A stretch of DNA of 37,718 nt from a bacterium (GCA_043758815.1 JAYVMS010000009.1:1-37718); one strand, 5' to 3'; counted from the first letter of the stretch, positions 1 through 15,906 are shown. The notes: a model not told the origin generated them from the letters alone. Made by a program: numbers and translations.

Positions 1-233
1 CCTGCGGCTTTTTTGTCTTCGACTATCTTTGTACCCTTCTTCATAAACCATGCTTCGTCTTTGTTGTAGTGCTTCCAGAATGTTGGCTCATCTGCGAGAC
101 CGAACTTCATTCCGACCACCTTGAGCCCTGCGCGCTCAAATCGCTTGAGGATCTCACCCATAAGTGCGCGCTGTATGGCGTCGGGTTTTAGAATGATAAA
201 TGTGCGCTCTTTCTTCGGATGTGCCTGCTGCAT
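1..233 (-). CDS. ndk: Nucleoside diphosphate kinase, N-terminal part. The C-terminus lies beyond the window edge.
   Basis: Reverse-complement translation from the ATG at 233 gives [44 protein letters not shown]..., the classic NDK N-terminus (ERTFxxxKPD). This ORF is not in the supplied track because it is truncated. Confidence 0.85.
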
Positions 234-337: not shown

Positions 338-3300
338 TTAGCGCTTGTGTGTCTCCATGTACATCAGGAGTTCGCCCTCAGCATCCGGTGAAACAACAAC
401 CTTCGTTTCGAGGTGATGCGCTTCGAGTATCTTGTACATTGCAAGCGGGCGTAGCTCTCCCTTTGCAAGCTTCATCGCATTTATTATTTCCATTTTTGCG
501 GCAGCAATATCTGTACTTAATCCTGGATTCATCTTGGTGCCCTGCTCAAGCTCAAGGAGATTAGTGAGGGTGAATGATTCGTCAGGTGTCGGAGTGTGCT
601 TAATGTACGCAGCAATTTCAGCGACACTGTGTGCGCGCTGAATACTTGCCTCAGGTGACACTACTACTCTGGGGGCGCTTTCTATTGCAGCGGCTTTGCT
701 GGCACTGCTCATTGCTTCAGGAGGCACGGAAACCGCGGGAGCCACTTCTGGGATTCGAATCTGCGCATCAAGCGCATTATGCTGATGCAGGATATGCATC
801 ATCTGCTCTGTTGTAAGCGGCACACCATTCGTAGCACGCATTTCTTGACCCAAATGAGCGACAGCCTCGTTGATATTATTCTTTGCCGCATCAGTGTCTG
901 CGAGTAAGGACAGACCCTTTATACTATGGAGCACGTTTGACTCAGTGGCGGATATTGAGCGGCCGAGCGTACTCTCGATAGATGCAGTATCACTTGCCGA
1001 AAGGGTGCCGACAAACTCACGCACTTCCCCGAAGCCTGTGGGGCTGTGTCCTGACATTACTGCCTCACTAGCGACTCCTCCCCCTCCACTCGTCTCCCCT
1101 AAATGCTGTGCGTGATTGATAAGACTCTCGCCGTTTATATTTATGAGTTTTTCCGAACCCAAGAGATCGTTCAATTTGTCTATTTGTATACTTTGCCCTG
1201 GGACAATGTGATTGGGGTCAATGATGCCTATTGCTTTCATGTCAACCAGAGTCAGCTTACTCAGTAGATTCTGTATCGCATTCTCTTGCTGTGGGGGTGT
1301 CAGATCCCTCATGACCGCAATGTGATCTTTGATGATGTGGGTGAGATTATCTCCTACTTTGACCACATATGCTGCGGTGGCACTTTCTTGACCTGAGTTC
1401 GCTGTCTCATTCTCGAGAGCCGCAGCTCCTTCTTGAATGCTTGTCGGCACATTAGTATTTTGAAGAATGTCGGCGATCTTTGCATCCATTGCCTCGCGAG
1501 TCATAGCAAGAGTTTTTGCAATTGCATCTTTTCCACTTTCATCAGCCGCCATGTACTCTTCAAACCCCTTCGCGAGCGCTGCTTGCTGTGGACCCACAAT
1601 TTCTTGCGGTAAGCCGCTCGTATTTCCTTGACCTCGTATTGCTTCACCGACTGCTCTTATCCCTGATGGGTTATATACAGCAGCATGGGTTGAAGATTTT
1701 TCTGCAAGAATTCCCGTACCGACGCCACCCCCAAAGTGCAGTAATTCTTTTGCTCCTTGAACTATGGCACCACCTGCAAGTGCGAAGCCACCACGAATCA
1801 ACCCTGACTTCACCGCCATCTTTCTGACTTCGCTCTTCCTTACCTCTTCGATAGTTTCTTGGCGGTTACCGACGATACGATCCATTTCTGCTTCGAGTGC
1901 ACCCTTGTCTACCGCGGTCTCTATCTCACCTTTGGACATTGCCTGGATGAAGCTTAAGCGGTTGGCTATGGTGTTGCCTTTGCGCGCGTCATCCTCTAGA
2001 AGCGATGAACCGCCGAAGTTTATCATGCCGCGTTCGTTCTTTTCTTTCATGAGCGCGACAGTTTGTGCAATCTTTTTTTCGAGAAGTTCACGCTCTGTAT
2101 CATCAGTCGACTGTTCAAGTTTGTTGGTTAAACGATCGACGCGCTTCACAAAGAAATTCGCATCGGTGAACTCGCGTATCTTTCTTGTTTCAACATGTTC
2201 GATAACTTTTTCTCCTGTCTGCTCATCGATAATCTCTTTGCCATGCTCATCTTTTTTAAATACTGCGTATTCTACTTCCTCGCGCACATCCTCTTCGCTC
2301 ATACGTCCATCGGCACGCTTTGCTTTCATCAGCTTCTTGCCTTCTGCCTGACCTATTCCGTAGCCGACTCCACCGCCTACCATCGCGATAACGGGAAGCA
2401 TAACACCGCCAGAGATTGCGACCGCGGCGGCGCGAGCTGCAGCACCATAGACCATAAAGCTCCCCTTTTTCTTCCAAAATTCCTTTGCAGCCACCCCGAT
2501 AACTGATTGATCCTCAACCTTAAGGAGAGCATCTTCTGCATTAGGATGCGTATTGAAAAGCTGATCGAGCTGCATTCGCTCATCCACCTTGTTCATCTCA
2601 AGCATTGCGGACTGGACTGGATCCTTATCTCCGCGTTCGGCAAATTTTGCCTCATAGGTTGCAAGCATGCTACTGCGCGCGGCATCATATTCAGCCTTCG
2701 CACCATTGTATTCGCGGCGCGTCTGTGAAAATCGTTCTAATAATCCGGGCTTTGCTGTCTCATAGCCCCACTCATGCGGGAACTTTGCATACGTATCTGC
2801 AGCTGCATTAAAGCGCTCCATAGCAGCGAGATTTTCCGGAGTAAGATGACCGGCATCAAGGTGGCCGAATATATCTTCGCGTGAAACATATTTAATACTG
2901 AGCTCGCCGTTTGCTTTAGTTTCTACTTCGGGACCGGCTTTGGCTACCTTTGTGAGCTCACCGAGTGCGGCGAGATTCTTCGCAAGGATCTTTATACGCT
3001 TGGGATCATTTGCGTCCCCCTCGCGTTGTTTTGCTGCAAGTTCTTTTTCTATCTGCGCCACACGGATATCAGGCGACATGCCGAGCGTTATTGCTGAAAG
3101 TCCAATACGCTTCCATATGCTTTTCTTTGCCCACTCTTCTTTCTGAAGCACTGCTGCATCCTTCTTCACATCCTCGAGCGCCATGGACTCGAGATTTTTT
3201 AGCGCAAGCAATTGCTGTCCGGAGGAAAGGTTTCTGAAGCCTGGAATACTCTTTATCATCTCTTCATCGATACCAAACTTCTCTTTGAATTGCTCTGCTA

Positions 3301-6300
3301 CAACAGGCTCAGGCATTGGCGCAGAGTCTTCTATTAAGCGCTCGGCAACTTTCGCCCAGCGATTGAGAGGTTCGTGTTGAAAAATACTGATGATTGCTTC
3401 TTTGTCGAGGCCATGCTCACTCAATCTCGAAAATGCGGCAATTCCCTGCTCAATCTGCTCGTTATATTCATTTCCCAGTACTTCGTTCTTTGACACCTCG
3501 AGAATGCTTAATAAACGCTTAGCAAATTCAGGAGCTTGGACCTTTACTATCGAGGTGATCATGTCTGCTGCGCTGCGTTCATCTTTGAGGTAGTCATAGA
3601 GACCGCCCTCCTCTTCGCTTTTGGTGAGAGATTTATATATTGCCTTGGGGTCACGACCCTCTTTCATGTATGCCAAGATCTCATCTGCAGCTTTCTGGTC
3701 GGCAATAACTCCCCTTTCGTTGCGTAATGCGCGTGACGCATACAGCGAGATTCTTTCCAACTCCCTTTCGAACATCATTGTCGCTTTTTCTTTTTCTTTT
3801 GCACTTGCACCTCCGTTCATGATGGCAAACTCTTCTTTTGCGCTTTGTATTGCATCTCTTGCCACTGCTTCGTTCATCGATCTATCAAAATTCGCTACTT
3901 GGCCCTCAAGAAGCACCGCATTAAATGCGTGCTGCTCCTCATGTTCGTAGATACCTTTTGCGCCACCTTCAAATGCTCTGCCCTGTGCTCGCTCAGCTAT
4001 GACTGCACCCCGAAGCTCGGGGATATACGTTGCAACACCCGCACACCCACCTGAGTGTTTCGCATCATCGATATCCTTCTGCTCTAGACTTTCAGTATTC
4101 TTACCTTTGCCTATATAGACTGCTGCATAATCATTATCATCGTGGATGCGGAAATACAGTGTCATTGGGCCTTTTATAACCTCTACTTTCCCTGCGGGCA
4201 CCATGCCGAAGCAGGCAGTAAAGAGCGCTTCGGGTGTATTGTATTTTTCAAAATTTTCTTCAACGGCAAGATGGATCTTGTTGTATTTGTCGTACGCTTT
4301 CTCCGCTATTGCAAACTGTTCTTTGGTTGGATGGAACTCTTTTGTCAGTTCAGTAAATTGCGCAAGAAAATCTTCTTTTGAGACATCAGAATTTGCTTTT
4401 ATTTGGCTGATCAATTCCTTTTGTGCATTTCCAATTCCTATCTTTTGTGCGGCGAGTCGTTCGCGATATGCAAGCAAGAGTGCTTTACGTTCTGCCTTAG
4501 GGGCTTTCAGAATGTTTTGCAGTTCTATTTCAGGATTCCACGCATCAGGGAGCTCTTTAACCATTACTTCTCCTTCGCCCAACACATCCTCAAGCGGAAG
4601 CTCGAGATCGAGTTTGGGGTCAGACTCAAGTTCAGGCTTCGGTGCTTCGGGGACTTTGGGGGCTCCCACATCGGCTTCGATCTTATCATCGTTTTCAGAA
4701 ACGACGAGCGAGGCGAGTTTCGTAAGAAGAATAGGGATCAAAACATTTTCGAGATAGGCCGGATGCCCGGTCGCATTCGCCTGAGAATCAGCTCTCCAAA
4801 TATCTGCCTCTCTTCTGCTTTCAGCAATATATCTTTCGATCGCCACTCTCTCCGTTTCTCCGGACTCCCTCGCGACCACTATCCGGTTAGCAATATCAGC
4901 TTCCGCCCGTCTCCTGGCCTCAGGGTCAACATTAAGTTTCACCTCTTCTTTTGGCGTATCTCCTCGTTCGAGTGCTGCGATCTTCTCGGCAATAATAGCA
5001 ATAAGCACTAATTCGAGGTAATCCGCATGACCACTTTCGCCCGCATTCTTCCATGCTTCCACCTCCATCTTGCTCTCCGCTAGGTATTTTTCGAGTGCTG
5101 TTTTTTCTGTCTCCCCGCTCTCAACTGAAACTTTTACCCTGTGAGCAATGTCCTCTTCGGCTTTTACTTTTAGCGTTTCGTATTCGGGATGTACTCGCTT
5201 GGGAGTTTTGGGAACTGTGATGATCTCATCCGGACCCCCAACCGGAACTTCGGGTGCTTCGATGGTGTGCTCAATAGGCAGAAGCTGCGGGTCTTCCGTC
5301 GCTTCATTTTTAAAATTGCGCGGAACCAAGGATTCAAGCTCCCATGCAGGAGCGTTGATATCCATGGCTTGCTCCTCAAGCGCATTGTCATAATCACTCA
5401 GTTTTGCTGTTGGTACTACTAAAGAGGGGGTTTTAAAAGTTTCTGACTCTATGAGGACCTGATCTGGTGGGAGTTGCGGGACATCAGGTGCAGCCGGAAG
5501 AGTGGATTCTATTGAAGTTTCCATGACTTCGTCAGTGGAATTGTTTATTAAATTGTTGTCCGGTAAATTAAGTGCATCGAGTTCAGCCTGTGCCCGCGCA
5601 GCATTTTGTTCTAATTTATCTAAATAACCGGTTTTGGGTTCGATGACATCAGGAAGTGTGTCTGCAGTTGCTTGCGCTGAATCAACAACCGGCTCGGGGG
5701 GATGAGAAAGAGCCACTGTAAGGGCACTGTTTCTTCGATATTTCGCCACCACAGGAACCTCGGCAAACTCTGTTAGCCATTTTTCTGGAACGGTGGCGCC
5801 ATGACCACTCTCTATTGCCTCAAGTGTGTTTTCGAGTGCACCGCGAGTTTTCTTTTCGAGACTGTAGAGTAATGCGCCCCTCTCTCTCCTCTGCCACTCT
5901 TCTTTTGCTAGACCGCTCAGCTTGGGGTTTGTATCAGACATCATACTATCTACTTCTTCCCAATTAGCGTCAATTAACTTTTTTTGTATTGCAGCGATAT
6001 CGTTCTGATCGACTGAAGCCTCTTGTGCGAGAGTTCCCATTCCAAAAGCAGCAATCGCCGCATCAGCATCCGATTGTTTCTTGACTGGAATTTCATCTTG
6101 CATCAGTTGCTCCTTGATCATGGCAAGCCCTGCGCCGATGTCGCTCACATCGATGCCTCGTGCGGCAAGTGTCTGTCGGATCTCGTCGCCAGAAAAGACC
6201 GCAAGATCGGGGGTACCGACCGCAGCTGCGATATCTTTCCAATTTGTCTTTCCTTCTGCTTTTTTTCGCAGCATTTGATTGGCTTCCCACTCGCGCGCAG

Positions 6301-7165
6301 AAAGCTCGCGCATGATGCGCTCAGCTGCCCACATGTTCACATTATATTTATCGAGCACAGCTTTATCACCTACGCGTATTGCCTGCTGCAACTCTTCATC
6401 AAGACTCTTAAAATCACTTACGACGACCTCTATGTTTCCGCCGATCTCAAGATCTGCCTTATTCAAATAGGCCTTTGCTTCTACTTCACCACCTAAGAGC
6501 CACTTGAGCTGGCTTTCGATGCTACGTTTTCGTTTGAGTTCTTCGGGATTAAGAATACGCTCGTCCGTGCCAAGTGCCATAAGCTCTGCCTCGAGTTCGT
6601 CGGCACGCTTAGTGAGACCGGGCAAAACTTCATCCCCCCTTCTTCTTCCCTCGAGCTCTCGCACTGCCCGCTGTCTTTCTCTGTCAACGTAATCGATCAT
6701 GTTGATCCTACTGATCAACATATCAGTTTTATTTAGCGGAGAGACTTCTTCTTTTTCAGCAGGCGATGAAACAGCTTCGATCGCATCCATGGGTGCTACT
6801 TGCGAAGAGAAATGACCGCCTGCATCTATAGGCGATTCAGTGGTCGACTCAACCAGAGTAGGAAGAGTCAGTGTTTGATCTTCTACTTGTTGTTGTTCAC
6901 CAGCCTGTTGCTCGAGTGGAGCGATATTTCCCACTGCAGGTGTGTAGTTCATCGCCGCTTTTATGCTCTCATATTCCCCCAAGGTCGAGATGATTGCATG
7001 GTTTTCTTGTTCAAATTGATGTTTTTCACTAAGTAGGCGAAGCTTCTCACGCGCATCATCCTCCAGCATGTCACTCTCGAGAATCTCTCTACTGAGAGCC
7101 TCAATTTCTTTAGCAACTCTTACCGTGAATTCCTCTTCTGTCTCTGGTGGATTGCGCTCTGTCAT
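338..7165 (-). CDS. Giant 2275-aa multidomain membrane-associated protein of unknown function
   Basis: A single uninterrupted 6.8-kb ORF with an ATG start. Features seen: an acidic coiled-coil-like N-terminus, a tandem ~70-aa repeat, an HEEQH motif, two Gly/Ala-rich hydrophobic hairpins, and a LysM-like segment. It has its own consensus promoter and terminator. Confidence 0.9.
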   Translation of the reverse strand: MTERNPPETEEEFTVRVAKEIEALSREILESDMLEDDAREKLRLLSEKHQFEQENHAIISTLGEYESIKAAMNYTPAVGNIAPLEQQAGEQQQVEDQTLTLPTLVESTTESPIDAGGHFSSQVAPMDAIEAVSSPAEKEEVSPLNKTDMLISRINMIDYVDRERQRAVRELEGRRRGDEVLPGLTKRADELEAELMALGTDERILNPEELKRKRSIESQLKWLLGGEVEAKAYLNKADLEIGGNIEVVVSDFKSLDEELQQAIRVGDKAVLDKYNVNMWAAERIMRELSAREWEANQMLRKKAEGKTNWKDIAAAVGTPDLAVFSGDEIRQTLAARGIDVSDIGAGLAMIKEQLMQDEIPVKKQSDADAAIAAFGMGTLAQEASVDQNDIAAIQKKLIDANWEEVDSMMSDTNPKLSGLAKEEWQRRERGALLYSLEKKTRGALENTLEAIESGHGATVPEKWLTEFAEVPVVAKYRRNSALTVALSHPPEPVVDSAQATADTLPDVIEPKTGYLDKLEQNAARAQAELDALNLPDNNLINNSTDEVMETSIESTLPAAPDVPQLPPDQVLIESETFKTPSLVVPTAKLSDYDNALEEQAMDINAPAWELESLVPRNFKNEATEDPQLLPIEHTIEAPEVPVGGPDEIITVPKTPKRVHPEYETLKVKAEEDIAHRVKVSVESGETEKTALEKYLAESKMEVEAWKNAGESGHADYLELVLIAIIAEKIAALERGDTPKEEVKLNVDPEARRRAEADIANRIVVARESGETERVAIERYIAESRREADIWRADSQANATGHPAYLENVLIPILLTKLASLVVSENDDKIEADVGAPKVPEAPKPELESDPKLDLELPLEDVLGEGEVMVKELPDAWNPEIELQNILKAPKAERKALLLAYRERLAAQKIGIGNAQKELISQIKANSDVSKEDFLAQFTELTKEFHPTKEQFAIAEKAYDKYNKIHLAVEENFEKYNTPEALFTACFGMVPAGKVEVIKGPMTLYFRIHDDNDYAAVYIGKGKNTESLEQKDIDDAKHSGGCAGVATYIPELRGAVIAERAQGRAFEGGAKGIYEHEEQHAFNAVLLEGQVANFDRSMNEAVARDAIQSAKEEFAIMNGGASAKEKEKATMMFERELERISLYASRALRNERGVIADQKAADEILAYMKEGRDPKAIYKSLTKSEEEGGLYDYLKDERSAADMITSIVKVQAPEFAKRLLSILEVSKNEVLGNEYNEQIEQGIAAFSRLSEHGLDKEAIISIFQHEPLNRWAKVAERLIEDSAPMPEPVVAEQFKEKFGIDEEMIKSIPGFRNLSSGQQLLALKNLESMALEDVKKDAAVLQKEEWAKKSIWKRIGLSAITLGMSPDIRVAQIEKELAAKQREGDANDPKRIKILAKNLAALGELTKVAKAGPEVETKANGELSIKYVSREDIFGHLDAGHLTPENLAAMERFNAAADTYAKFPHEWGYETAKPGLLERFSQTRREYNGAKAEYDAARSSMLATYEAKFAERGDKDPVQSAMLEMNKVDERMQLDQLFNTHPNAEDALLKVEDQSVIGVAAKEFWKKKGSFMVYGAAARAAAVAISGGVMLPVIAMVGGGVGYGIGQAEGKKLMKAKRADGRMSEEDVREEVEYAVFKKDEHGKEIIDEQTGEKVIEHVETRKIREFTDANFFVKRVDRLTNKLEQSTDDTERELLEKKIAQTVALMKEKNERGMINFGGSSLLEDDARKGNTIANRLSFIQAMSKGEIETAVDKGALEAEMDRIVGNRQETIEEVRKSEVRKMAVKSGLIRGGFALAGGAIVQGAKELLHFGGGVGTGILAEKSSTHAAVYNPSGIRAVGEAIRGQGNTSGLPQEIVGPQQAALAKGFEEYMAADESGKDAIAKTLAMTREAMDAKIADILQNTNVPTSIQEGAAALENETANSGQESATAAYVVKVGDNLTHIIKDHIAVMRDLTPPQQENAIQNLLSKLTLVDMKAIGIIDPNHIVPGQSIQIDKLNDLLGSEKLININGESLINHAQHLGETSGGGGVASEAVMSGHSPTGFGEVREFVGTLSASDTASIESTLGRSISATESNVLHSIKGLSLLADTDAAKNNINEAVAHLGQEMRATNGVPLTTEQMMHILHQHNALDAQIRIPEVAPAVSVPPEAMSSASKAAAIESAPRVVVSPEASIQRAHSVAEIAAYIKHTPTPDESFTLTNLLELEQGTKMNPGLSTDIAAAKMEIINAMKLAKGELRPLAMYKILEAHHLETKVVVSPDAEGELLMYMETHKR
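1175..1372 (-). other. LysM-like (peptidoglycan-binding-like) segment of the giant protein
   Basis: YVVKVGDNLTHIIKDH...IVPGQSIQIDKL matches the LysM ends (YxVKxGDxLxxI ... PGQxLxI). The interior is about 20 aa longer than canonical LysM. Confidence 0.45.
1700..1810 (-). other. Second hydrophobic Gly/Ala-rich membrane segment of the giant protein
   Basis: GLIRGGFALAGGAIVQGAKELLHFGGGVGTGILA. Confidence 0.4.
2350..2465 (-). other. First hydrophobic membrane hairpin of the giant protein
   Basis: SFMVYGAAARAAAVAISGGVMLPVIAMVGGGVGYGIG is flanked by Lys-rich stretches (KKKG... / ...EGKKLMKAKR). Confidence 0.55.
3929..3943 (-). other. HExxH (HEEQH) candidate zinc-metallopeptidase motif in the giant protein
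   Basis: The context is GAKGIYEHEEQHAFNAVLLEG. It is preceded by a beta-rich stretch (GKVEVIKGPMTLYFRIHDDNDYAAVYIGKG), as in zincin folds. Confidence 0.4.
4701..5160 (-). repeat. Two tandem ~70-aa protein repeats inside the giant gene
   Basis: AEEDIAHRVKVSVESGETEKTALEKYLAESKMEVEAWKNAGESGHADYLELVLIAIIAEKIAAL versus AEADIANRIVVARESGETERVAIERYIAESRREADIWRADSQANATGHPAYLENVLIPILLTKLASL. By eye these are roughly 45% identical. Confidence 0.7.
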
Positions 7166-7173
7166 ATATTTAA

Positions 7174-7202
7174 ATTATATCAATAATAATAAGAAATGTC
7201 AA
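7174..7202 (-). promoter_or_regulatory. Consensus sigma70-type promoter of the giant gene, implying a leaderless mRNA
   Basis: The minus strand reads TTGACA (7202-7197), a 17-nt spacer, then TGATATAAT (-10 hexamer at 7179-7174). Only 8 nt separate the -10 box from the ATG at 7165, and there is no SD. Confidence 0.6.
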
Positions 7203-7324
7203 GCTATTGCATGACGATAGTTGAAGTTAATTTAAGTTTAATTATACATTAAAACAGCCAATACAAAATAATTTATCGGTGATCACTGACTCTAGCTAAA
7301 AATCCTGACGTCGAGTATGGCGGA

Positions 7325-10300
7325 CTACTTATCAGTATCTGATGTATCACCAAGCTGCGAACGGGCGAACATTTTCGCAAACGGACTTTCTTCTTCTTTG
7401 ATTGCGGGTGCTTGCGCTTGTGGTAGAGTAGAAGTAGGTTGCTGGGATAGAGCAGATTGTGGTGGGCTTACAAATACCTGAGTGATCTGAGGCAAAAGCG
7501 GAGGTTGTGGTGTTTCGAGTACTTGAGTTTGCACTGGGGGGGCGACCGGAGGTTGTGAGGCAACATTCGCAAAGGCTTGCGCGAATTGATGCTGCGGCGC
7601 GACCTGAGGAGCTTGCGCCATCTGTTGTGTTGGGGGTAATACTAGTGTTGCTTGCAGTGGTGCTGCCACTTGAGACTGTACTTGAGTTACTGGGCGTGAC
7701 TGAGGAGGCGGTGTGGGCGCAGCTTGCTGAGGAGCCGCTGGCTCGGGACGCGCAAGGTATTTTTTCATGACTGCGTCGTCGACAGTTGCGCGGTCTTTGC
7801 CGAACTTGAGATATGAAAGATTTTTTATTTGCTCGACCACTTCTGGAGTGCCTGTGGGCGGCGGCATGGTTTCAATATTAAACGGCGGTACTGGTTTGCC
7901 GTTAATAAGCATCTTGAGATACGCATTATGATTGTCTATCTTCATGATGTCTGAGGCCTTGAAGATCGGGGCGAACTGCGATTCAAGAAATTGCGCATCT
8001 TCGGCGCCAACACGAAATACTGCCATCGAGCCAACGTTGCCGAACACCGCATCCTTTATACCCGGATCAAGCTGGGCGATGAATTGATGCGCGACATTTA
8101 GCGAGAGCCCATATTTGCGCGCCTCTGAAAGTATCGACGATATGGAGTCGGTCGAGATATTCTGGAATTCATCAATATAGAGATAAAAGTCAGGAAGTAT
8201 TTTCCCTATCGCATCAACGCGGGAGAGTGCGGCCATAAGGATCTTGCCGACCAACACCAGTCCGATAAGATTGGAGTTAATTTCACCGAGCTTACCTTTG
8301 GCGAGATTCACAAGAATGATCTTCTTGTTGTCCATGATATCGCGGAAGTTGAATGATGACTTTTCCTGCGCAATGATTGGACGCATCACGTCATTTGAAA
8401 GAAATATATCAAACTTGTTTGTAATGTATGGCACCATGTTAGCGAGCGAGGACTCCCCTGTCGATTTGCCAGCGATATCGCGCCAAAACTGCACCACGAT
8501 AGGATTTTTGCAACGTGAAAGTTTCAGATTCCTGAATGACACATCGACAAGTACGCGCGGGATCTCGAGCATGGTGTTGCCGGTCTCGGGATCTTCCATC
8601 ACCAAGAGTGTCGAGTAGCGGAAGTATTGTTCGAATGCGGGGCCCATCGACTCTGGCGTCGAAGAATAGAGTTTTTTGAAAATAGAAAGCATTTCATTGA
8701 CGACGAAAATTTTCTGCTCGGGCTTTGTGATATCGTACTCGAGCATATTGAGCGCAAATGGCCGTGCTGTATATGACGGATCAAAATAAATGACGTCATC
8801 GATGCGTTCCTTAGGGATATTGGCCAAAATATCTTGCACGTCAGAACCGTGCGGATCAATGAAGCACACCCCCTTACCAGCCTTGATGTCCTCGACAATC
8901 ATATTCTTGAGGAGCGTGGTCTTACCGGTACCGGTCTGTCCGATGACATAGAGATGTCGCACGCGATCCTGCTTGGTCATGCGAATCTCATGTGTCTCAC
9001 CGCGATATTTATTAACCCCGAGCAAAGTTCCCTCATGCGGAAGATCAGAAGGCGCTGGCGCAGACGACGCCTTCACGGTCTTGAGCTGTGGCGCATCTTT
9101 CTGCGACATTCCTGCAGGAAGGTGATAAAGCGTGGCAAGCTCCTTCGTGTTGAACACCAGCGCCTCGTTATCATCGACTTCGCGATAAGTGAAGTTATGC
9201 AAGAGCGTCGACAAGCGTGCCTTATCCGCATGTGTGAACTTTATGCCGTTTGCTTGTGGTCGTGCGAATTGATTAAATGCTGATTCGATGGAAAGTCGTA
9301 TCGCCTCAGCACGCTCTCGCGTTGGAGCAGAGACGACAAGGCGGAGATTGGCGATCAAAAGTGGGGATTGGATCTTTTCTTCCATCAGGGCAGTAGCTTT
9401 CTGTGCGGAATCAGCTTCTTTCGCGTCAAGCGTACTGTCTTTCTTTTGTCCTTTTACTTGTGTATTGAAAAACTCACTGAAGGTCTTCACGATAGCTCCT
9501 CCTGCAGAGAGTGGGATATCGGTCGCGCGTTTTACCGGCACTCCCTGCTTTATCTGCCCTAACGCATGCTTGACCTTATTGACCACACGGTCAGAGTCAG
9601 GAGAGATTATCAACTGTAGCGCCGCACCCTCACCATCGCGTTCAATCTTGGTAAACGAATTGAGAATAACGGCGAAAGGATCCTGCTCACTATCATCAGA
9701 CATCTTGATGGGATAAACAAAGCGATTGGTCACCTCCGCATATGAGCCAATTGACGCACCGAATTCATTGAAGATATTGTAGTCCCCCGGATGCTCCTCT
9801 ATCTTTGCTGTGGGAAACGCGCCCAAAATCTGCTTCACAAAAAGATCCTTCATGTGCTCCTCAACTGCAATATAAAACACAATATCATTTGAGAAATTTG
9901 AAAGCACGAGCTCAAGAGAAAAGTGTCCGTATTGTGACTTCGATGCACCCTCAAGCGGTATCATGCCAACATAGAAGCGCTCCATTTCTAATATGACGTC
10001 TTTAAAAGACAGCACCTTCTCCCCTTCCTGCATTCCTGCGAACGGAAGCGTGACCTCATACACAACCATATGCAAAAGCATCGACAGATCGCGCTCTTTT
10101 TCGAGTCCAGGAACAATTGCTCCTGTTCGTACATACTCGACAAGTACGCGATGAAAATCATCTTCAATGTGCGGATTGCCAAGGGCTTGAGACAACTTAA
10201 TAGCAGAAAGCACGCCTTTCTCCGCAAGTATCTTGTAGATCTCACGCATCTTTTCGCGATGAGGAAGTGAGCCGATATGCTCAACCACAGTTTCGAATTG

Positions 10301-10531
10301 AGGATTATCTACGATGAGGTGTTCCTCCAGCTTGGTTTCGGGCATCTGCTTTCCGTATTCGGTGATGGTCGCAGAAATTGCCGCCTCAGTCTTATTCGCG
10401 GGAGCAGTCTGCTCTTGCCACATCGCACTCTCTTTGTGTGCGACCTGCTCACGCAAATACTTCAACTCTTCTTCGGGAGAAGAAAATTTTTGCGATTCAT
10501 TATATTCTCTGGGAGCTCCTCCATTTTCCAT
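7325..10531 (-). CDS. VirD4/TraD-like (type IV coupling protein family) P-loop ATPase. It is soluble, with an unknown N-terminal domain and a P/Q-rich C-terminal tail.
   Basis: Walker A is HLYVIGQTGTGKTTLL (8918-8941). Walker B is DFYLYIDEFQN (8161-8190). ARKYGLSLNVAHQFIAQL is typical of TraD/VirD4 coupling proteins. No TM helices are present. The last ~140 aa are P/Q/A-rich low complexity. Confidence 0.8.
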   Translation of the reverse strand: MENGGAPREYNESQKFSSPEEELKYLREQVAHKESAMWQEQTAPANKTEAAISATITEYGKQMPETKLEEHLIVDNPQFETVVEHIGSLPHREKMREIYKILAEKGVLSAIKLSQALGNPHIEDDFHRVLVEYVRTGAIVPGLEKERDLSMLLHMVVYEVTLPFAGMQEGEKVLSFKDVILEMERFYVGMIPLEGASKSQYGHFSLELVLSNFSNDIVFYIAVEEHMKDLFVKQILGAFPTAKIEEHPGDYNIFNEFGASIGSYAEVTNRFVYPIKMSDDSEQDPFAVILNSFTKIERDGEGAALQLIISPDSDRVVNKVKHALGQIKQGVPVKRATDIPLSAGGAIVKTFSEFFNTQVKGQKKDSTLDAKEADSAQKATALMEEKIQSPLLIANLRLVVSAPTRERAEAIRLSIESAFNQFARPQANGIKFTHADKARLSTLLHNFTYREVDDNEALVFNTKELATLYHLPAGMSQKDAPQLKTVKASSAPAPSDLPHEGTLLGVNKYRGETHEIRMTKQDRVRHLYVIGQTGTGKTTLLKNMIVEDIKAGKGVCFIDPHGSDVQDILANIPKERIDDVIYFDPSYTARPFALNMLEYDITKPEQKIFVVNEMLSIFKKLYSSTPESMGPAFEQYFRYSTLLVMEDPETGNTMLEIPRVLVDVSFRNLKLSRCKNPIVVQFWRDIAGKSTGESSLANMVPYITNKFDIFLSNDVMRPIIAQEKSSFNFRDIMDNKKIILVNLAKGKLGEINSNLIGLVLVGKILMAALSRVDAIGKILPDFYLYIDEFQNISTDSISSILSEARKYGLSLNVAHQFIAQLDPGIKDAVFGNVGSMAVFRVGAEDAQFLESQFAPIFKASDIMKIDNHNAYLKMLINGKPVPPFNIETMPPPTGTPEVVEQIKNLSYLKFGKDRATVDDAVMKKYLARPEPAAPQQAAPTPPPQSRPVTQVQSQVAAPLQATLVLPPTQQMAQAPQVAPQHQFAQAFANVASQPPVAPPVQTQVLETPQPPLLPQITQVFVSPPQSALSQQPTSTLPQAQAPAIKEEESPFAKMFARSQLGDTSDTDK

Positions 10532-10650
10532 GCTAGTTATAGTATATCAGGAGAAAAACACGGAGGATATACACGTGTAGGGATACCTCTTGAGCTTATC
10601 GCTTTTCACTGTTTGGGGTCATGCGACTGATGCGTAAAATCGGTAATTGC

Positions 10651-12258
10651 CTAAGAATATATCTCGTCTTTCTTTTCCTTGAGTACTGAGGAGAAGGTGT
10701 CGAAGAATTGCAATATAAGCTTGAGTGGGATCTCGATGAAGAAGTCCATGAAGATGGCGATGAGATTCAGGCGTTCGAAGCGCACCACAAGCCATCTTCC
10801 GACTGAGACTATTGGGAGCATGAGTAACTCTGCGAGCGAGCGCAGGAAACCTTCGCGTGCGCCCGTAAGCTCCATTCTGCGGGCCGCATAACGTATACGG
10901 AATCCAAAATAAAGCACGAGCGCGAGGAAGACGAGGAAGAATCCGATGTCGATGTAATGAAATCCAAGACTGAGAAGTGTCCGCGTTATCCATGCAAATG
11001 TTGCTCCAAGGACTGCTACATAGAGCCCAAGTGCGATATCGGAAATGATACCAAAACGCTTTAGCGTAAGGGTAATTTGCGGAAGTGGTCCTCCATAGAC
11101 AATATCTTTAACCAAAAGAGTGAGACGATCGGTGTTTTGCTTGGATGGCAAAGCGAGACCCGAGGTGAGCATGAAGAGCATTGCCGGATGAAAGAAGATA
11201 TTCGTCGCGACTGCGACATAGTTGATGCTTGCCTTCCACACTGACAAATAGAGCGACTCAACTACGACAGCGAGCAGTGTCTTGGTGGCAAAGATATAAA
11301 TGATGGCTTGCCATGCTCGACGTGATGCGCGCGAAACATCTTGTTTGTATTTTTCGACGATCACCGCTCGAACGCGTGTTTCAAAATCCGCACGATTGGT
11401 GATGAGTGTTTCGACACCTGTATCATAATGCTCGAGCAGTTCGTAAAGCACCGAGACCGCGATGGAGTAATTGCGCAGGCGTGGCTGTAGGCGTTTGCCA
11501 AGGTCATGCTCAATAATGCTCTGTGCGTGTGTGATGAACTCTGGAAACACGGCAGCGAGCTGTATAAGTGTTTCAGTATCCGCATTTTCCCAATTGGGAT
11601 AGTGCACAAGCCATAATTTATATAAAAGTAAGGCACTATCCGCCGCAAAGAGTGACCGCCAAGCAGTGGCGTAGACGACAAGCTCGCGTGAAGCATTATC
11701 AAGTGTGATCCCTGTTGTAACGAGGGTGTCGTCGGTAATGCGTGCAAGCAGTCGCACCGATGCCTCTTCATTGTGTGTGAGATAGAGTCGGTCTTCGATA
11801 GCACCGGCCACGATATCGAGGAGATATTTGCGCAACTGCAAGAATTCGGGAACGGAAACACTCGCTTCGATGGCACTCGAAAGCAGAAGAAACGCTGATA
11901 TCGTTCGGCGGACATCTTCTTCGCGATGGCGGGTGACGCTTGCCTTTGAGAGGTAGTGCCCGCGATAGAGATCTTGCAAAAGTCCTTGCGTGATGACCTT
12001 CGGGTCATCAGAGAACCACATAATACGTTTTGCGATCCGCCTTATGGCATAACGCCGCAAAAAATGCTCTTCTTTGTTGTCGACCGCATTGCGGATCTTT
12101 TCATAGACTATTCCAGCCTGATCAGAAATCTGACTCAAAAAAAACGGCGCACTTTCTTCGCTTCGCTCGCGTGACTCATCTTCGATCTCGGTTGCGCGAA
12201 GAAAGGCAAGTACGTCCGACATTGCAGATCCGATCTCGATTTTAGACTCTGGTACCAT
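10651..12258 (-). CDS. Polytopic membrane protein of unknown function, with a ~330-aa helical soluble N-domain and at least 5 C-terminal TM helices
   Basis: Long ORF. The C-terminal hydrophobic segments include AIIYIFATKTLLAVVVESLYL, IALGLYVAVLGATFAWI and IGFFLVFLALVLYFGF. The start is ambiguous. The ATG at 12258 is preceded by TATAAT plus 7 nt. The alternative GTG at 12309 overlaps the map stop (GTGA). Confidence 0.75.
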   Translation of the reverse strand: MVPESKIEIGSAMSDVLAFLRATEIEDESRERSEESAPFFLSQISDQAGIVYEKIRNAVDNKEEHFLRRYAIRRIAKRIMWFSDDPKVITQGLLQDLYRGHYLSKASVTRHREEDVRRTISAFLLLSSAIEASVSVPEFLQLRKYLLDIVAGAIEDRLYLTHNEEASVRLLARITDDTLVTTGITLDNASRELVVYATAWRSLFAADSALLLYKLWLVHYPNWENADTETLIQLAAVFPEFITHAQSIIEHDLGKRLQPRLRNYSIAVSVLYELLEHYDTGVETLITNRADFETRVRAVIVEKYKQDVSRASRRAWQAIIYIFATKTLLAVVVESLYLSVWKASINYVAVATNIFFHPAMLFMLTSGLALPSKQNTDRLTLLVKDIVYGGPLPQITLTLKRFGIISDIALGLYVAVLGATFAWITRTLLSLGFHYIDIGFFLVFLALVLYFGFRIRYAARRMELTGAREGFLRSLAELLMLPIVSVGRWLVVRFERLNLIAIFMDFFIEIPLKLILQFFDTFSSVLKEKKDEIYS

Positions 12259-12305
12259 CTCTTCTATTATAACGTGCTTTTCGCGGGAGTACTCACCGCT
12301 AAAGA

Positions 12306-13067
12306 TCACTGCGTAACGATCTCAGAGCCTTTATCGGTAATGACAATAGTGTGTTCAAAATGTGCAGACAGAGAGCCGTCTTCTGTAACAATGGTATAGC
12401 CGTCAGGCATCATGCGTATATCTTCGGAGCCCAGCATGAACATTGGCTCTATGGCGATAACCATCCCCGCTTTCAATATCGGGCCATTACCTTTTTTGCC
12501 ATAATTGGGGACGTAAGGGTCTTCGTGTACCTTATGCCCTACTCCATGACCGCCAAGTTCTCGCACGAGACCATAACCCTTCGATAGTCCGATACGTTCA
12601 ATCGCAGCACCAATATCACCGATGTGCCCTCCTGCGCGCGCAGCTTTAATACCAGCATAAAGGGCTCGCTCTGTCTCAGCAATGAGCGTCTTCAGCTGTT
12701 CGGGGACATCACCCACAGCTACGGTGAGTGCTGCGTCGGTGATCATGCCCTTATGCAGAACCCCAAGATCGATACTTACCAGATCACCGTCTTTGATGAC
12801 TCTGTCACTTGGGATGCCGTGCACGATCTCATCGTTTATCGACACGCAAAGCGATGCAGGAAATGGCTGGCGTGCGCCATGTGGAGTGTAGTTTAAAAAT
12901 GGCGGAGTATCCCCCCCTTCTCGAATAAGACGCTCGGCCACCTCATCCAAATATTTGGTTGTGACTCCCACTTTTATTTCTGCTTTTACCGCATGGAGAA
13001 TACGACCCAAGCGCTTTCCTGACTCGCGCAAGGCTACGATCTCTTCCGCAGTCTTTAATTTTGCCAT
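12306..13067 (-). CDS. map: Methionine aminopeptidase type I
   Basis: MAKLKTAEEIVALRESGKRL..., plus the metal-ligand context DLVSIDLG, GHGVGHKVHE and IAIEPM. It follows adk, as in other bacteria. Confidence 0.95.
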   Translation of the reverse strand: MAKLKTAEEIVALRESGKRLGRILHAVKAEIKVGVTTKYLDEVAERLIREGGDTPPFLNYTPHGARQPFPASLCVSINDEIVHGIPSDRVIKDGDLVSIDLGVLHKGMITDAALTVAVGDVPEQLKTLIAETERALYAGIKAARAGGHIGDIGAAIERIGLSKGYGLVRELGGHGVGHKVHEDPYVPNYGKKGNGPILKAGMVIAIEPMFMLGSEDIRMMPDGYTIVTEDGSLSAHFEHTIVITDKGSEIVTQ

Positions 13068-13293
13068 TTAAAGATACTACCATGTCCCACAAAAGAAAAA
13101 AGAGTCTCAGAATTTCTGAATAATGCTGATTTTCGATGTAGTACGAAGTCTTGGATAAGGATAATTAACAAACTGAGTGATGCGGTTTTGAAATGCAGTA
13201 TGAGGCATCGAGGAAGTGACACCTATGAGGTGTATTCATATACATCGAATAGGTTCACGACGATGATAGCGAAATAATGCATTCAAAACCGCA

Positions 13294-13899
13294 TCACTCA
13301 CCGAAGACATTGGCAATGATATCCCTCTGCACCTCCTCAATTGACCCCTCCCCATTTATCTCAATGAAATCATAGTCACGGTCACGGCGGTAATGATTGA
13401 TAGTTGGAAGCACGTCGTGATCGAACCAATCGAGTCTGCGATTGATACTTTGCTCGGTGTCGTCAGTGCGTCCCTCTTTCTCGGCGCGTGCCATAAGATG
13501 CTTGAATGACCACTCGCGATGTACCTTGAGATAGATAACTGTTGGCTGTTCACGTTTAAAGAACTTCATTGCAATATCAAGGTGATGCGCTTCAGAAAGA
13601 GTACGCGGCGCACCGTCTAAGATGATGTGTTCATTGCCGGTGAGATTCTTAACAAAGATATCTGACCAAAGCCACATCGCAAGAAATGACGGTTGTAACC
13701 CTCCATGCTCCTGCACTTCGCGTGCAATATGCGAGGCGTAGGTATTACCCTTGATGAACTCCCTGAAGTGCTCACCGGTTTGCACATAAAATATGGGGAT
13801 TTCCGGAGTTTTTTTCTTAAAGTAGTCTTTTACCAGAGCCACTTGAGTGCCCTTGCCTGACCCTGAAGCACCGATAAATATAAAAGTTTCTTTATGCAT
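13294..13899 (-). CDS. adk: Adenylate kinase family nucleoside-monophosphate kinase (short-lid form)
   Basis: P-loop FIGASGSGKGTQ, ILDGAPRT, and the syntenic position between secY and map. Confidence 0.85.
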   Translation of the reverse strand: MHKETFIFIGASGSGKGTQVALVKDYFKKKTPEIPIFYVQTGEHFREFIKGNTYASHIAREVQEHGGLQPSFLAMWLWSDIFVKNLTGNEHIILDGAPRTLSEAHHLDIAMKFFKREQPTVIYLKVHREWSFKHLMARAEKEGRTDDTEQSINRRLDWFDHDVLPTINHYRRDRDYDFIEINGEGSIEEVQRDIIANVFGE

Positions 13900-13950
13900 G
13901 TGGAGAGTATAACCACATATCTCGATAATTCAAAATTACTCTACGAAAGA

Positions 13951-13979
13951 TTGACAGTGCACATTATCTTATATATAGT
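13951..13979 (+). promoter_or_regulatory. Near-consensus promoter of the plus-strand orphan gene
   Basis: TTGACA (13951-13956), a 17-nt spacer, then TATAGT (13974-13979). It lies ~25 nt upstream of an AAAGGAG SD and the ATG at 14005. Confidence 0.5.
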
Positions 13980-14004
13980 TTTCCGAGAAACAAAAGGAGT
14001 TGCA

Positions 14005-14382
14005 ATGCCCAAACGCTCAGTCTACGACAAAACCGCTGATCTCATCGCACAAGAACCAAGCGAAGTACTCCGTGCTGTCCTTGAACGGCCCTACTGGCCA
14101 AGACAGCTCGATGTCGGCATCTCCTACACCCGACTCGGTGACGACAACCGTGGTGAGGTGACTGTTACCATAGCACCTGACGCTGACGCTTGGATAACGG
14201 TGTTCTCAAGGCTCGACCCAGAAGAGTGCGGTCTTTCACACCGCTTCCGCTCTGGCTTCGGTGGTGGTGAGAGCGAGCGTGTCCGCAATGCACTGTTGGC
14301 GCTTGCGCTTGCTATTAAGCTCGACAATCGCGAGCGACCACAGGATCATAGACGCAAGATCCCACCTGATGCTCCGAAATAA
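14005..14382 (+). CDS. Orphan hypothetical protein (125 aa) inserted antisense between secY and adk
   Basis: Internal ATG of track ORF 13894..14382, with SD AAAGGAG 5 nt upstream. It has its own promoter and its own terminator. I recognise no family. Confidence 0.65.
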   Translation: MPKRSVYDKTADLIAQEPSEVLRAVLERPYWPRQLDVGISYTRLGDDNRGEVTVTIAPDADAWITVFSRLDPEECGLSHRFRSGFGGGESERVRNALLALALAIKLDNRERPQDHRRKIPPDAPK

Positions 14383-14394
14383 GTTCCTTCAATC

Positions 14395-14423
14395 ATAACT
14401 GCACTTGGTGCAGTTATTTTTTT
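14395..14423 (+). terminator. Intrinsic terminator of the orphan gene
   Basis: ATAACTGCA cttgg TGCAGTTAT (9-bp stem) followed by TTTTTTT. Confidence 0.7.
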
Positions 14424-14448
14424 CATACCTGCATCAAAATAATTGAGC

Positions 14449-14478
14449 AAAAAACAAAAACAGCCTTTTGGGCTGCTT
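14449..14478 (-). terminator. Intrinsic terminator ending the secY transcript
   Basis: The minus strand reads GCAGCC CAAAA GGCTG followed by TTTTTGTTTTTT. It lies ~155 nt downstream of the secY stop. Confidence 0.55.
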
Positions 14479-14631
14479 TGCTAGAATTTAAATTAAACGA
14501 CAGCGGTGTTTACTTTTTTGATGCAATGCGAAGTCCTGGAGCGCTTCGGTGTTCGAGGGGGTGTATGAGTGATACATCCTCCGAACCCGAATGCGGGAAG
14601 GACGAGTAGTGCGCAAAAAATAGACGCCGCT

Positions 14632-15906
14632 CTAGTACTCGCGCATTGAGAGCTGTGCATCCATCTTCTTGATGAGATCAAGCACCACTGAGACAACAAT
14701 GAGCAGTGCGGTACCGCCGATAGCGAGCTTGGTGTCGCCGGTGATAGATTGCATAGCAAGTGGCAAGACTGCAACGACTGAGAGGAAGAGTGCGCCGGCA
14801 AATGTCGTGCGCGTAAGTATCTTTGCGAGATGCTCTGCGGTCGCATTACCTGGGCGAACTCCCGGAATGAACGCACCTGACTTCTGTAGATTCGTAGCAA
14901 TTGCTTCAGGATCGAAAGTCACTGCGGTGTAGAAGTAGGTGAAGAGGAAGACAAGGATAAAGTAGAAACCTGAGTAGACCCAGCCTTGCGTGAAGTGAAG
15001 CTTTAAGAATTCTCCAATGTGCTGCGCGGTTGGATTTGCAAGTCCAGAAAGAAAACCACCGATAAGCTGAGGGAAAAGCAATATAGAAAGTGCGAAGATG
15101 ATAGGAATGACACCCGCCTGATTAACACGAAGTGGGAGGTAGGTTGAAACTCCGCCGTACATCTTTCCACCGCGCACGCGCTTGGCGTAGGTGATCGGTA
15201 CGGGGCGCTCAGCCTCGGTCATGACAATAACACCTGCGACAATGGCTACTGCTGCGAGTACGAATGCGAGATAAGTAGGGATTTCCGCCTGATTAAAGCC
15301 TGATGCCAAGATCTGCGATGTTGCGGTGGGGATACGTGAAACGATACCTGCGAAGATGATAAGCGAGACACCGTTTCCTACGCCGAACTCAGAGATGAGT
15401 TCACCGAGCCACATAAGGAAGACCGAGCCAGCTGTGACAATTATGACGTTTGAGAACATTTGAAACGGATTGAGCGTACCCAAAACACCTTGGTGGGCCA
15501 AGAGAATGAGAAGACTGTATCCCTGAAGCAATGCCAGGGGTATGGTAAGCAGACGAGAGTATTGCGTGAATTTCTTGCGACCAAGCTCGCCTTCCTCGTG
15601 ATACATCGCCTTAAGCTTAGGCGACATCATAGTGAGTAATTGCATGATGATAGAACCCGTAATGTAAGGACCCACACCGAGCATAACTATAGAGAGGTTA
15701 GAAAGGCCTGAACCAGAAAATACGTTCAAAAGTCCGAGGAATTGGTTGTTCTTGAAGAATTGATCGAGCGCAGCGTGGTCAACTCCCGGAATAGGGACTG
15801 CAGCGGCGATACGAAATACCACGAGTGCACCTATGACAAAGAAGATGCGATTGCGAAGCATCGAATCACTCATCATCAGTCGTAATTTGTAGAAAAAATT
15901 GTTCAT
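14632..15906 (-). CDS. secY: Preprotein translocase subunit SecY
   Basis: A 424-aa polytopic protein with typical SecY sequence (GVGPYITGSIIMQLL, GVIPIIFA), directly after rplO. Confidence 0.95.
   Translation of the reverse strand: MNNFFYKLRLMMSDSMLRNRIFFVIGALVVFRIAAAVPIPGVDHAALDQFFKNNQFLGLLNVFSGSGLSNLSIVMLGVGPYITGSIIMQLLTMMSPKLKAMYHEEGELGRKKFTQYSRLLTIPLALLQGYSLLILLAHQGVLGTLNPFQMFSNVIIVTAGSVFLMWLGELISEFGVGNGVSLIIFAGIVSRIPTATSQILASGFNQAEIPTYLAFVLAAVAIVAGVIVMTEAERPVPITYAKRVRGGKMYGGVSTYLPLRVNQAGVIPIIFALSILLFPQLIGGFLSGLANPTAQHIGEFLKLHFTQGWVYSGFYFILVFLFTYFYTAVTFDPEAIATNLQKSGAFIPGVRPGNATAEHLAKILTRTTFAGALFLSVVAVLPLAMQSITGDTKLAIGGTALLIVVSVVLDLIKKMDAQLSMREY

Follow-up and report, generated by a model that had tools for sequence, protein, structure and literature searches.

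The 37,718-nt stretch of bacterial DNA analyzed in this work (JAYVMS010000009.1, positions 1-37718, in assembly GCA_043758815.1; hereafter the window) encodes on its minus strand, at positions 338-7165, a giant protein of 2275 residues. Tentatively, and with rather less than even confidence, we infer that this protein acts as a wall-anchored membrane hub for the VirD4-like ATPase encoded immediately upstream, and that it carries a probable metallohydrolase in the same chain. It belongs to a family found, as far as sampled, only in the Patescibacteria. A considerable part of bacterial diversity falls within this group, whose members live attached to other cells and possess envelope proteins that are for the most part without known function.

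According to the proposed arrangement, some 1,560 N-terminal residues (modules N1-N3, a duplicated unit, then module A plus the first half of B) would lie in the cytoplasm. A Gly/Ala-rich hairpin would then dip into or across the membrane and return, the most conserved stretch of ~180 residues would stay inside, and a third helix would next cross the membrane. The last ~460 residues would be outside, where a divergent LysM domain would grip peptidoglycan, followed by two helical repeats. The cytoplasmic part would serve as both membrane receptor and scaffold of the soluble VirD4-like ATPase, and the hub would hold in cis the module A hydrolase that other species encode separately.

An ATPase gene conserved beside the giant gene

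The giant gene takes part in a co-directional gene order that runs from ribosomal protein genes through secY, adk, map, the gene for a 552-aa protein and the ATPase gene to the giant gene itself and ndk. Its upstream neighbor (7325-10531, minus strand) encodes a 1068-aa product, recognized by Pfam, NCBIfam and PDB sequence matches, that comprises a DUF8128-type N-terminal domain (DUF8128 is recorded for this very product), a Walker A motif (GQTGTGKT) and a Q/P-rich tail. This product scores 26.6 bits against TrwB_AAD_bind (cut-off 20.5), matches DUF87 as well, comes just below the cut-off of 22 bits for TraG-D_C (21.9) and matches TraD models at E 1.6e-11; its best PDB sequence match is TrwB. 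By sequence, the neighbor can be classified as a VirD4/TraD-type ATPase, with a Walker A/B domain that bears TrwB-type and TraG-D_C signatures. Canonical VirD4 coupling proteins have a membrane anchor, whereas no N-terminal transmembrane anchor was found in this ATPase, the first 750 residues of which contain no hydrophobic segment. More distant homologues of the ATPase have one or two predicted membrane helices.

The ATPase gene adjoins the gene for module B, the family-defining core of the giant protein, in all nine ndk-linked orthologous loci with enough flanking sequence (L001, L002/L004, L005, L008, L011, L012, L016, L027 and L095), among which module-B identity falls as low as 31%. In the Campbellbacteria locus L095 the order is swapped (map-B-ATPase-ndk), and in L091 the ATPase gene is found 2 kb away from the module-B gene. 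The ndk gene (nucleoside diphosphate kinase), the 5' part of which was identified by translation at positions 1-233 (minus strand), follows the giant gene in nearly all orthologous loci. Given this conserved adjacency and the missing anchor of the ATPase, it seems plausible that the two proteins are in contact.

A survey of the Patescibacteria has reported 5,713 VirD4-like genes in 2,918 genomes, mostly far from virB4, and has described such orphan genes as lacking a known role and possibly exapted (PMC12102498). Our search of the literature on DUF8128 and on giant proteins beside coupling proteins of the Patescibacteria yielded nothing relevant beyond that study. The 22 open reading frames (ORFs) of the window that were scanned yielded neither virB4 nor another channel gene. 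The ATPase matches the phage family phrog_5156 (E 1e-78) over part of its N-terminal domain, and relatives with 21-23% identity occur in Bacillus and Geobacillus phages (e.g. gp156 of phage G). It also matches the defense-related mad8 and HerA; a defense system was rejected on account of the housekeeping locus and of the absence of a PADLOC match for the giant protein.

Because the giant gene sits at the end of the ribosomal protein-secY-adk-map operon, and because no relatives of its product were found in plasmid and viral collections, the sequence context identifies the locus as chromosomal, and as housekeeping rather than mobile. The 552-aa protein (10651-12309, minus strand) consists, judging from translation and hydrophobicity, of a soluble N-terminal part of ~330 aa and 5-6 C-terminal transmembrane helices; its gene is located at the same position in L002, L011 and L027, and is not present in every orthologous locus. 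The map stop and the start of this gene share 4 nt (12306-12309), an overlap suggesting that its translation is coupled to the end of the ribosomal protein operon.

The giant gene is preceded by a consensus extended sigma-70 promoter (TTGACA-17-TGaTATAAT, a 12/12 match) at 7174-7202 on the minus strand, which ends 8 nt before the ATG, and no Shine-Dalgarno sequence was found upstream of this start codon. A spacing of 7-10 nt between the -10 element and the ATG is kept in the diverged orthologous loci L002, L006, L008, L011, L012 and L013, and a near-consensus version of the promoter occurs in L001, L010 and L015. The short distance from promoter to ATG and the lack of a Shine-Dalgarno sequence suggest an mRNA that is leaderless, or nearly so, and strongly transcribed.

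Modules and predicted topology of the giant protein

A word-indexed protein search returned only three relatives from the whole protein and two from a four-sequence core, whereas HMMER, run exhaustively with a profile built on aa 900-2099, retrieved 1,327 cluster representatives (E<=1e-3), of which 925 remain at E<=1e-10. Among the 150 best matches of the latter search, 78 consist of module A without the others and are soluble proteins some 390-520 aa long, and module B is present in 68, in proteins of 296 to 2775 aa; a further 74 proteins also contain module B. Fusions of A and B make up 13 of the 68 module-B proteins, and module C (aa 1926-2100 in the profile mapping) follows B in 35 of the 150 and is found alone in four. 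Relatives also combine in different ways, as seen with phmmer, the N-terminal modules N1-N3, a 'mid' region and modules D and E of the C-terminus. Sequence comparison thus describes the giant protein as a fusion of modules that are also found separately, and the A-B fusions suggest, by the Rosetta-stone argument, that module A works together with module B. Two loci have two module-B genes in tandem upstream of ndk (L010, 600-4118 and 5924-12745; L015, 276-3152 and 3276-9176), an arrangement that indicates paralogue expansion.

Family members come from Lloyd-, Campbell-, Wolfe-, Jorgensen- and Falkowbacteria and from metagenome-assembled genomes (MAGs) labeled 'Patescibacteria group', and they are named 'hypothetical protein' in databases throughout. 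Scans of the whole giant protein and its segments against Pfam, NCBIfam, PADLOC and PHROGs gave no significant match, and PDB sequences were matched neither in a single-sequence search nor by the module A and B profiles. When another 35 module-B proteins were compared with Pfam in search of domains fused to them, one marginal FtsK_gamma match resulted and nothing else. The earlier note on this DNA, prepared from the sequence alone, did not recognize the combination as a described family, and neither the profile libraries nor PDB sequences nor Foldseek have significantly matched it. The novelty lies in modules A and B and in the overall architecture, which appear to be undescribed; the LysM domain, the HExxH motif and the VirD4-type neighbor are known elements.

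Module B (aa 1285-1830; 1676-3313, minus strand), delimited by the exhaustive search and by AlphaFold, is ~50% identical across Lloydbacteria orthologues and 31% identical in the most distant syntenic one. The AlphaFold model of modules B to E has a pLDDT of 79 overall, and above 90 over most of aa 1285-1555; in module B it runs from a helical bundle through a helix-turn-helix, a beta hairpin and further helices to a 58-residue helix. Foldseek comparisons of this model with the PDB, and of the module A model with PDB and BFVD, returned long-helix noise only; the best match, an F-BAR protein (E 0.09, probability 0.16), was not accepted as a sign of homology to membrane-bending proteins.

Within module B, the Gly/Ala-rich hairpin predicted at nt ~2350-2465 in the earlier note corresponds to aa 1569-1606 (2348-2461, minus strand). 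It is the sole strongly hydrophobic part of the protein, with a Kyte-Doolittle (KD) maximum of 2.04 and a Hessa sum of +2.65 for aa 1579-1597, comparable to the weaker SecY helices encoded in the same window, and AlphaFold models it within a helix-turn-helix (aa 1555-1618) that turns at aa 1585-1588 (SGGV). The ensuing stretch (aa 1607-1785; 1811-2347, minus strand), which the same note took for a charged linker of ~180 aa, turned out to be the best conserved of the whole family in the alignments. It is modeled as a beta hairpin and helices, is predicted to be cytoplasmic and includes the conserved motifs GRMSEED, EFTDAxFF, KKIAQTVAL, RGMINFGG and TIANRLSFIQAM. A third hydrophobic segment, counting the two hairpin arms, spans aa 1786-1812 (1730-1810, minus strand), where a second hydrophobic region had been anticipated at nt ~1700-1810; identified by KD and Hessa values and from relatives, it forms the last third of the 58-residue helix and is clearly hydrophobic in P0111, P0116 and L026. 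Residues G1574 and R1578 of the hairpin and F1794 and G1798 of the third segment are nearly invariant, and the second hairpin arm contains a GxxxGxxxG run (G1598, G1602, G1606), both of which suggest that these segments engage in specific helix packing rather than providing a plain anchor.

Five independent observations on relatives bear on the orientation of these segments. Throughout the family, K and R are abundant on either side of the hairpin. As a mean of 60 relatives, there are 4.4 K+R per 15 residues before the third segment versus 1.1 after it, and in 58/58 relatives charged residues make up a smaller fraction past this segment than ahead of it, falling from 0.32 to 0.19 in the giant protein. 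The compact relative of L026 has an uncharged, hydrophobic third helix followed by a LysM-like module, and the third segment is alike in shorter relatives. Finally, module B of P0214 is followed, ~1,100 residues further towards the C-terminus, by a YkuD domain that scores 43.5 bits against a cut-off of 23.4, and L,D-transpeptidases of this type act on peptidoglycan outside the membrane. Together, these observations lend indirect support to a topology in which the N-terminus is inside, the hairpin returns to the inside and the third segment, probably an N-in/C-out transmembrane helix, leads to an outer C-terminus, in line with the inside-to-outside course that was initially proposed. The relationship of module C to LysM speaks for the same orientation. 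The lack of an N-terminal signal peptide, also pointed out at the time, agrees with the absence of any hydrophobic segment at the N-terminus. In the L026 relative (9062-13486, 1475 aa), module A is combined with a Gly/Ala hairpin, the third helix and the LysM-like module just mentioned, with no recognizable module-B helices, and its gene adjoins one for a coupling-protein homologue with two membrane helices.

Module A (aa 900-1284; 3314-4468, minus strand), defined by the exhaustive search, alignment and AlphaFold, is an HExxH...E domain. Its HEEQH motif (aa 1075-1079; 3929-3943, minus strand), which the earlier note had located together with a beta-rich stretch, reads HEEQHA in almost all members. 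P990, D1012, G1040, H1075, E1076, H1079, E1162 and Y1190 are invariant in an alignment of 69 sequences, HEEQH as a whole being invariant or nearly so. An AlphaFold2 model built from the family alignment (pLDDT 90.7, pTM 0.87) puts the motif on a helix preceded by four short strands and two helices, and the ~450 aa of helical sequence expected after the motif appear as long helices in the models. The invariant E1162 is located 83 residues downstream, near the end of a long later helix. This order of elements, with a conserved HExxH on a helix after a small beta sheet, fits a zincin with a distal Glu ligand. On the other hand, module A has no sequence or fold similarity to a known peptidase family: its model has no Foldseek match in PDB or BFVD at E<=0.001, its profile matches no PDB sequence, and no peptidase family of Pfam or NCBIfam matches it or any of five stand-alone members. 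For these reasons we do not file it as a zincin, and the invariance of HExxH, Glu and Tyr leads us to regard it as a probable metal-dependent hydrolase of a new family outside the known peptidase families. A peptide-deformylase-like site (GGC upstream of HExxH) was ruled out, as the Cys is not conserved, and so was a di-iron site, as there is only one ExxH. Stand-alone module A genes, of which that for PIW97469.1 (Jorgensenbacteria) is an example, also occur beside GtrA or sugar-transferase genes; in two other cases they have a PMT_2 glycosyltransferase gene on either side, the gene ends overlapping or touching (L067, 8787-12822; L080, 8784-12819), and they form tandem paralogues on two further contigs (L029, 9923-12344; L033, 9406-11835).

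Module C (aa 1932-1997; 1175-1372, minus strand) had been called LysM-like and proposed for checking against PF01476. That profile falls short of its gathering threshold on the giant protein (15.4 vs 20.9 bits, profile positions 28-42 only), although LysM is the top, if sub-threshold, Pfam family in 16 of 27 diverse module-C sequences (best E 0.0017). Whole-profile comparison, in contrast, upholds the assignment: with hhalign, an alignment of the 27 sequences matches one of four Escherichia coli K-12 LysM domains (NlpD, two of MltD, and Kbp) at 96.1% and E 3.7e-9 over template columns 3-47 of 50, with two insertions, whereas the LysM alignment compared with module A as a control gives 0.07%. 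The model of module C (pLDDT ~93) displays a beta-alpha...alpha-beta order. On sequence comparison, module C is a LysM domain, divergent and interrupted by two helical insertions, homologous over the whole beta-alpha-alpha-beta unit, and it is predicted to lie outside the membrane. The Gly/Ser-rich stretch SGGGGVAS reported earlier is present. The two loosely similar helical modules seen at the C-terminus, D (aa 2058-2139; 749-994, minus strand) and E (aa 2179-2259; 389-631, minus strand), prove homologous when family alignments are compared with hhalign (97.2%, E 4e-11), but not significantly so by BLASTP alone (E 0.66). Module D is also found in P0032, P0036, P0100 and P0111, and module E in P0005, P0017, P0020, P0022 and P0028.

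At the opposite end, module N1 (aa 1-140; 6746-7165, minus strand) is acidic, as had been remarked of the first ~130 aa, where 28 D/E face 9 K/R, and recurs in P0020, P0032 and P0036 in phmmer searches against family members and loci. The further description of this region as heptad-like fails, since the 3.5-residue periodicity of aa 1-130 is no better than that of 23% of shuffles. Modules N2 (aa 141-360) and N3 (aa 361-530), which are charged and helical (5576-6745, minus strand), are common to other module-B proteins in varying combinations, as detected with phmmer and with tblastn in orthologous loci. The two tandem repeats of ~70 aa noticed at the outset are a duplication of a ~70-75-aa unit at aa 669-822 (4700-5161, minus strand), with 51% identity over 67 aa (E 1e-21). 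This duplication is unique to the giant protein and is missing even in an 82%-identical relative, other relatives holding at most one degenerate copy of the unit. Sub-threshold Pfam matches to PUMA_CC, on the repeat, and to Not1 were set aside.

Alternative explanations and known systems

A number of observations weigh against a wall-anchored hub for the ATPase. Adjacency of genes is not contact between their products, and distant module-B subfamilies have no ATPase gene nearby and reside instead near mreBC/dnaKJ or an mraZ-PBP cluster, so the link to the ATPase may be limited to one subfamily. Module A is missing from many orthologues, and when encoded alone it adjoins a coupling-protein homologue in only about 5 of 25 distinct loci; Foldseek matches its model to neither a zincin nor any other fold, and a conserved E and Q within HEEQH are unusual among zinc peptidases. 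Regarding the membrane segments, the hairpin arms have 15-17 residues each and are weakly hydrophobic in the giant protein, and its third segment is weak (KD 1.25, Hessa sum +7.0). One distant subfamily (L093, L096 and L097; ~3800-7900 and ~11600-14700 in each) has conserved neighbors of its own, namely a divergently transcribed gene for a ~760-aa protein and a gene for a ~215-aa protein, with OmpA-like genes downstream; the ~760-aa neighbor was ruled out as the ATPase.

The strongest rival, which we judge unlikely, is that the protein, like FimV/HubP or RodZ, organizes the envelope as a landmark or as a scaffold for morphogenesis, works independently of the ATPase and has it as one client at most. 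An outside LysM domain joined to a very large, acidic and repeat-bearing cytoplasmic region would suit a protein that positions division, elongation or surface-appendage machinery. Distant members are encoded near mreB-mreC, mraZ-rsmH-PBP, DivIC, OmpA-like and YkuD genes, one member is fused to an L,D-transpeptidase, and the gene has a strong and conserved promoter of its own at a housekeeping locus. The polar hubs FimV, HubP and TspA are arguably the nearest analogues in working mode: they combine a wall-side LysM, a membrane crossing by one transmembrane helix and a very large acidic, repeat-bearing cytoplasmic part that organizes ATPases or envelope machines. The LysM of FimV/HubP, however, is N-terminal and behind a signal peptide, whereas that of the giant protein is C-terminal and behind three hydrophobic segments, and the giant protein has in addition a hairpin, an HExxH module and the module-B core. 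Matches to NCBIfam or Pfam models of these hubs number zero, with no NCBIfam match to FimV/HubP even at E<=1. Moreover, small genomes bring cell-wall genes within 8 kb of many loci by chance, and an ATPase adjacency of 9/9, with the order changed in one lineage, is hard to explain without a functional link.

A bolder extension of the hub, which we deem improbable, is that module-B oligomers form, through their conserved Gly/Ala segments (the hairpin, with its nearly invariant Arg and its GxxxGxxxG run, and the third helix), the membrane conduit of an undescribed, VirB4-independent translocation machine. The VirD4 homologue of the DUF8128 type, itself anchorless, would power this machine, LysM would fasten it to the wall, and it would move DNA or protein across the envelope, for instance in exchange with hosts. 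Among known systems, type IV secretion in monoderms, which comprises a VirD4 coupling protein with VirB6-, VirB8- and VirB1-like partners, is comparable in that the neighbor of the giant gene encodes a VirD4/TraD-type ATPase. VirB1-like proteins with LysM have been reported in the Patescibacteria (PMC12102498), and a wall-binding domain on a membrane partner recalls them. As opposed to such systems, neither the giant protein nor the scanned ORFs of the window bear a VirB4, relaxase, VirB6 or VirB8 signature; the giant protein falls into none of the VirB6/PrgH, VirB8/PrgL, VirB1/PrgK and VirB10 families, and no type IV secretion structure appears among its Foldseek matches.

More improbable still would be a signaling protease of the BlaR1/MecR1 kind, in which LysM senses own or host peptidoglycan and the cytoplasmic HExxH module, activated by a signal relayed along the helices, cleaves a regulator. 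An invariant HExxH...E on the predicted cytoplasmic side and a peptidoglycan-binding domain outside are united in one chain, and the compact L026 relative retains exactly module A, the hairpin, the transmembrane helix and LysM. BlaR1 and MecR1 (M56) likewise join a cytoplasm-facing HExxH...Glu domain to an extracellular domain that recognizes cell-wall chemistry. Their protease, however, is woven between membrane helices, whereas that of the giant protein would be a detachable module ~300 residues upstream of the membrane hairpin. There is no homology or fold match between the two, module A having no structural match to M56 or any other zincin, and its protease activity is putative. In addition, many orthologues keep B and C without the HExxH module, module A is mostly a free soluble protein, and no regulator gene is conserved nearby.

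It is very unlikely that the giant protein is an exported substrate or surface effector of the VirD4-like ATPase, akin to relaxases, effectors or polyvalent proteins. Genes for conjugative coupling proteins often adjoin those of their substrates, and in its size, its mosaic build, its zincin-like module and the coupling-type ATPase encoded next to it, the protein may recall polyvalent proteins of conjugative elements and phages. The giant gene, on the contrary, occupies a core position on the chromosome, between map and ndk, plasmid and viral collections contain no relatives of it, and its product has no Pfam match to the usual polyvalent-protein domains. Its conserved membrane segments and wall-binding domain argue for an integral, membrane-embedded envelope protein, the conserved part is central rather than a terminal secretion signal, and no virB4 or channel gene accompanies it in the ORFs scanned.

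Lastly, the unusual length of the gene and the existence of its modules as separate genes elsewhere might evoke a chimeric assembly or several genes read through as one, a prospect that was raised from the start and that can be set aside with near certainty. The interval 338-7165 is a single ORF of 2275 codons, as first described, uninterrupted from its ATG, uniform in GC content and with the conserved promoter directly at the annotated start. Four contigs, which come from at least two independent assemblies and include an 82.9-kb ENA metagenome scaffold and a Logan assembly, carry the identical 2275-aa product with its neighbors unchanged, and the fused A+B+C order is repeated in orthologues of 2012-2561 aa, including ones at 59-82% identity and those of L009/L027. 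With the same product in the same surroundings on four contigs, and with orthologues of similar length, the giant ORF is a real gene and not an assembly artefact. The nucleotide ranges given in the earlier note translate to the residues it described, and ten of its eleven features hold where it placed them, the exception being the heptad-like N-terminus.

Other genes and implications

Three further observations concern neighboring genes. Within the window, an isoleucyl-tRNA synthetase-like protein of 1204 aa (25899-29513, minus strand) has a His_Phos_1 domain (E 6e-28) inserted at aa 529-705, and a 639-aa protein with one N-terminal membrane helix and no Pfam or NCBIfam match (23336-25255, minus strand) is encoded between a prolyl/histidyl-type tRNA synthetase gene and recO. 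In L002, from a Patescibacteria MAG, a Pfam T6SS_HCP match lies at 1366-1941, a few kb upstream of the map-ATPase-giant locus.

The analysis conducted here names a conserved partner for one large group of orphan VirD4-like ATPases. It also brings forward three new sequence families, namely an HExxH...E domain that is confidently modeled and lacks a structural neighbor, a membrane core module and a divergent LysM, together with a testable architecture that would join the cytoplasm to the cell wall. The assembly of giant protein and ATPase might serve the transport of DNA or protein, or the remodeling of the wall. Should the two be physically linked, the giant protein would provide a route to what such motors move in host-dependent organisms and, if module B does form a conduit, thousands of orphan coupling proteins of the Patescibacteria would gain both a partner and a function.

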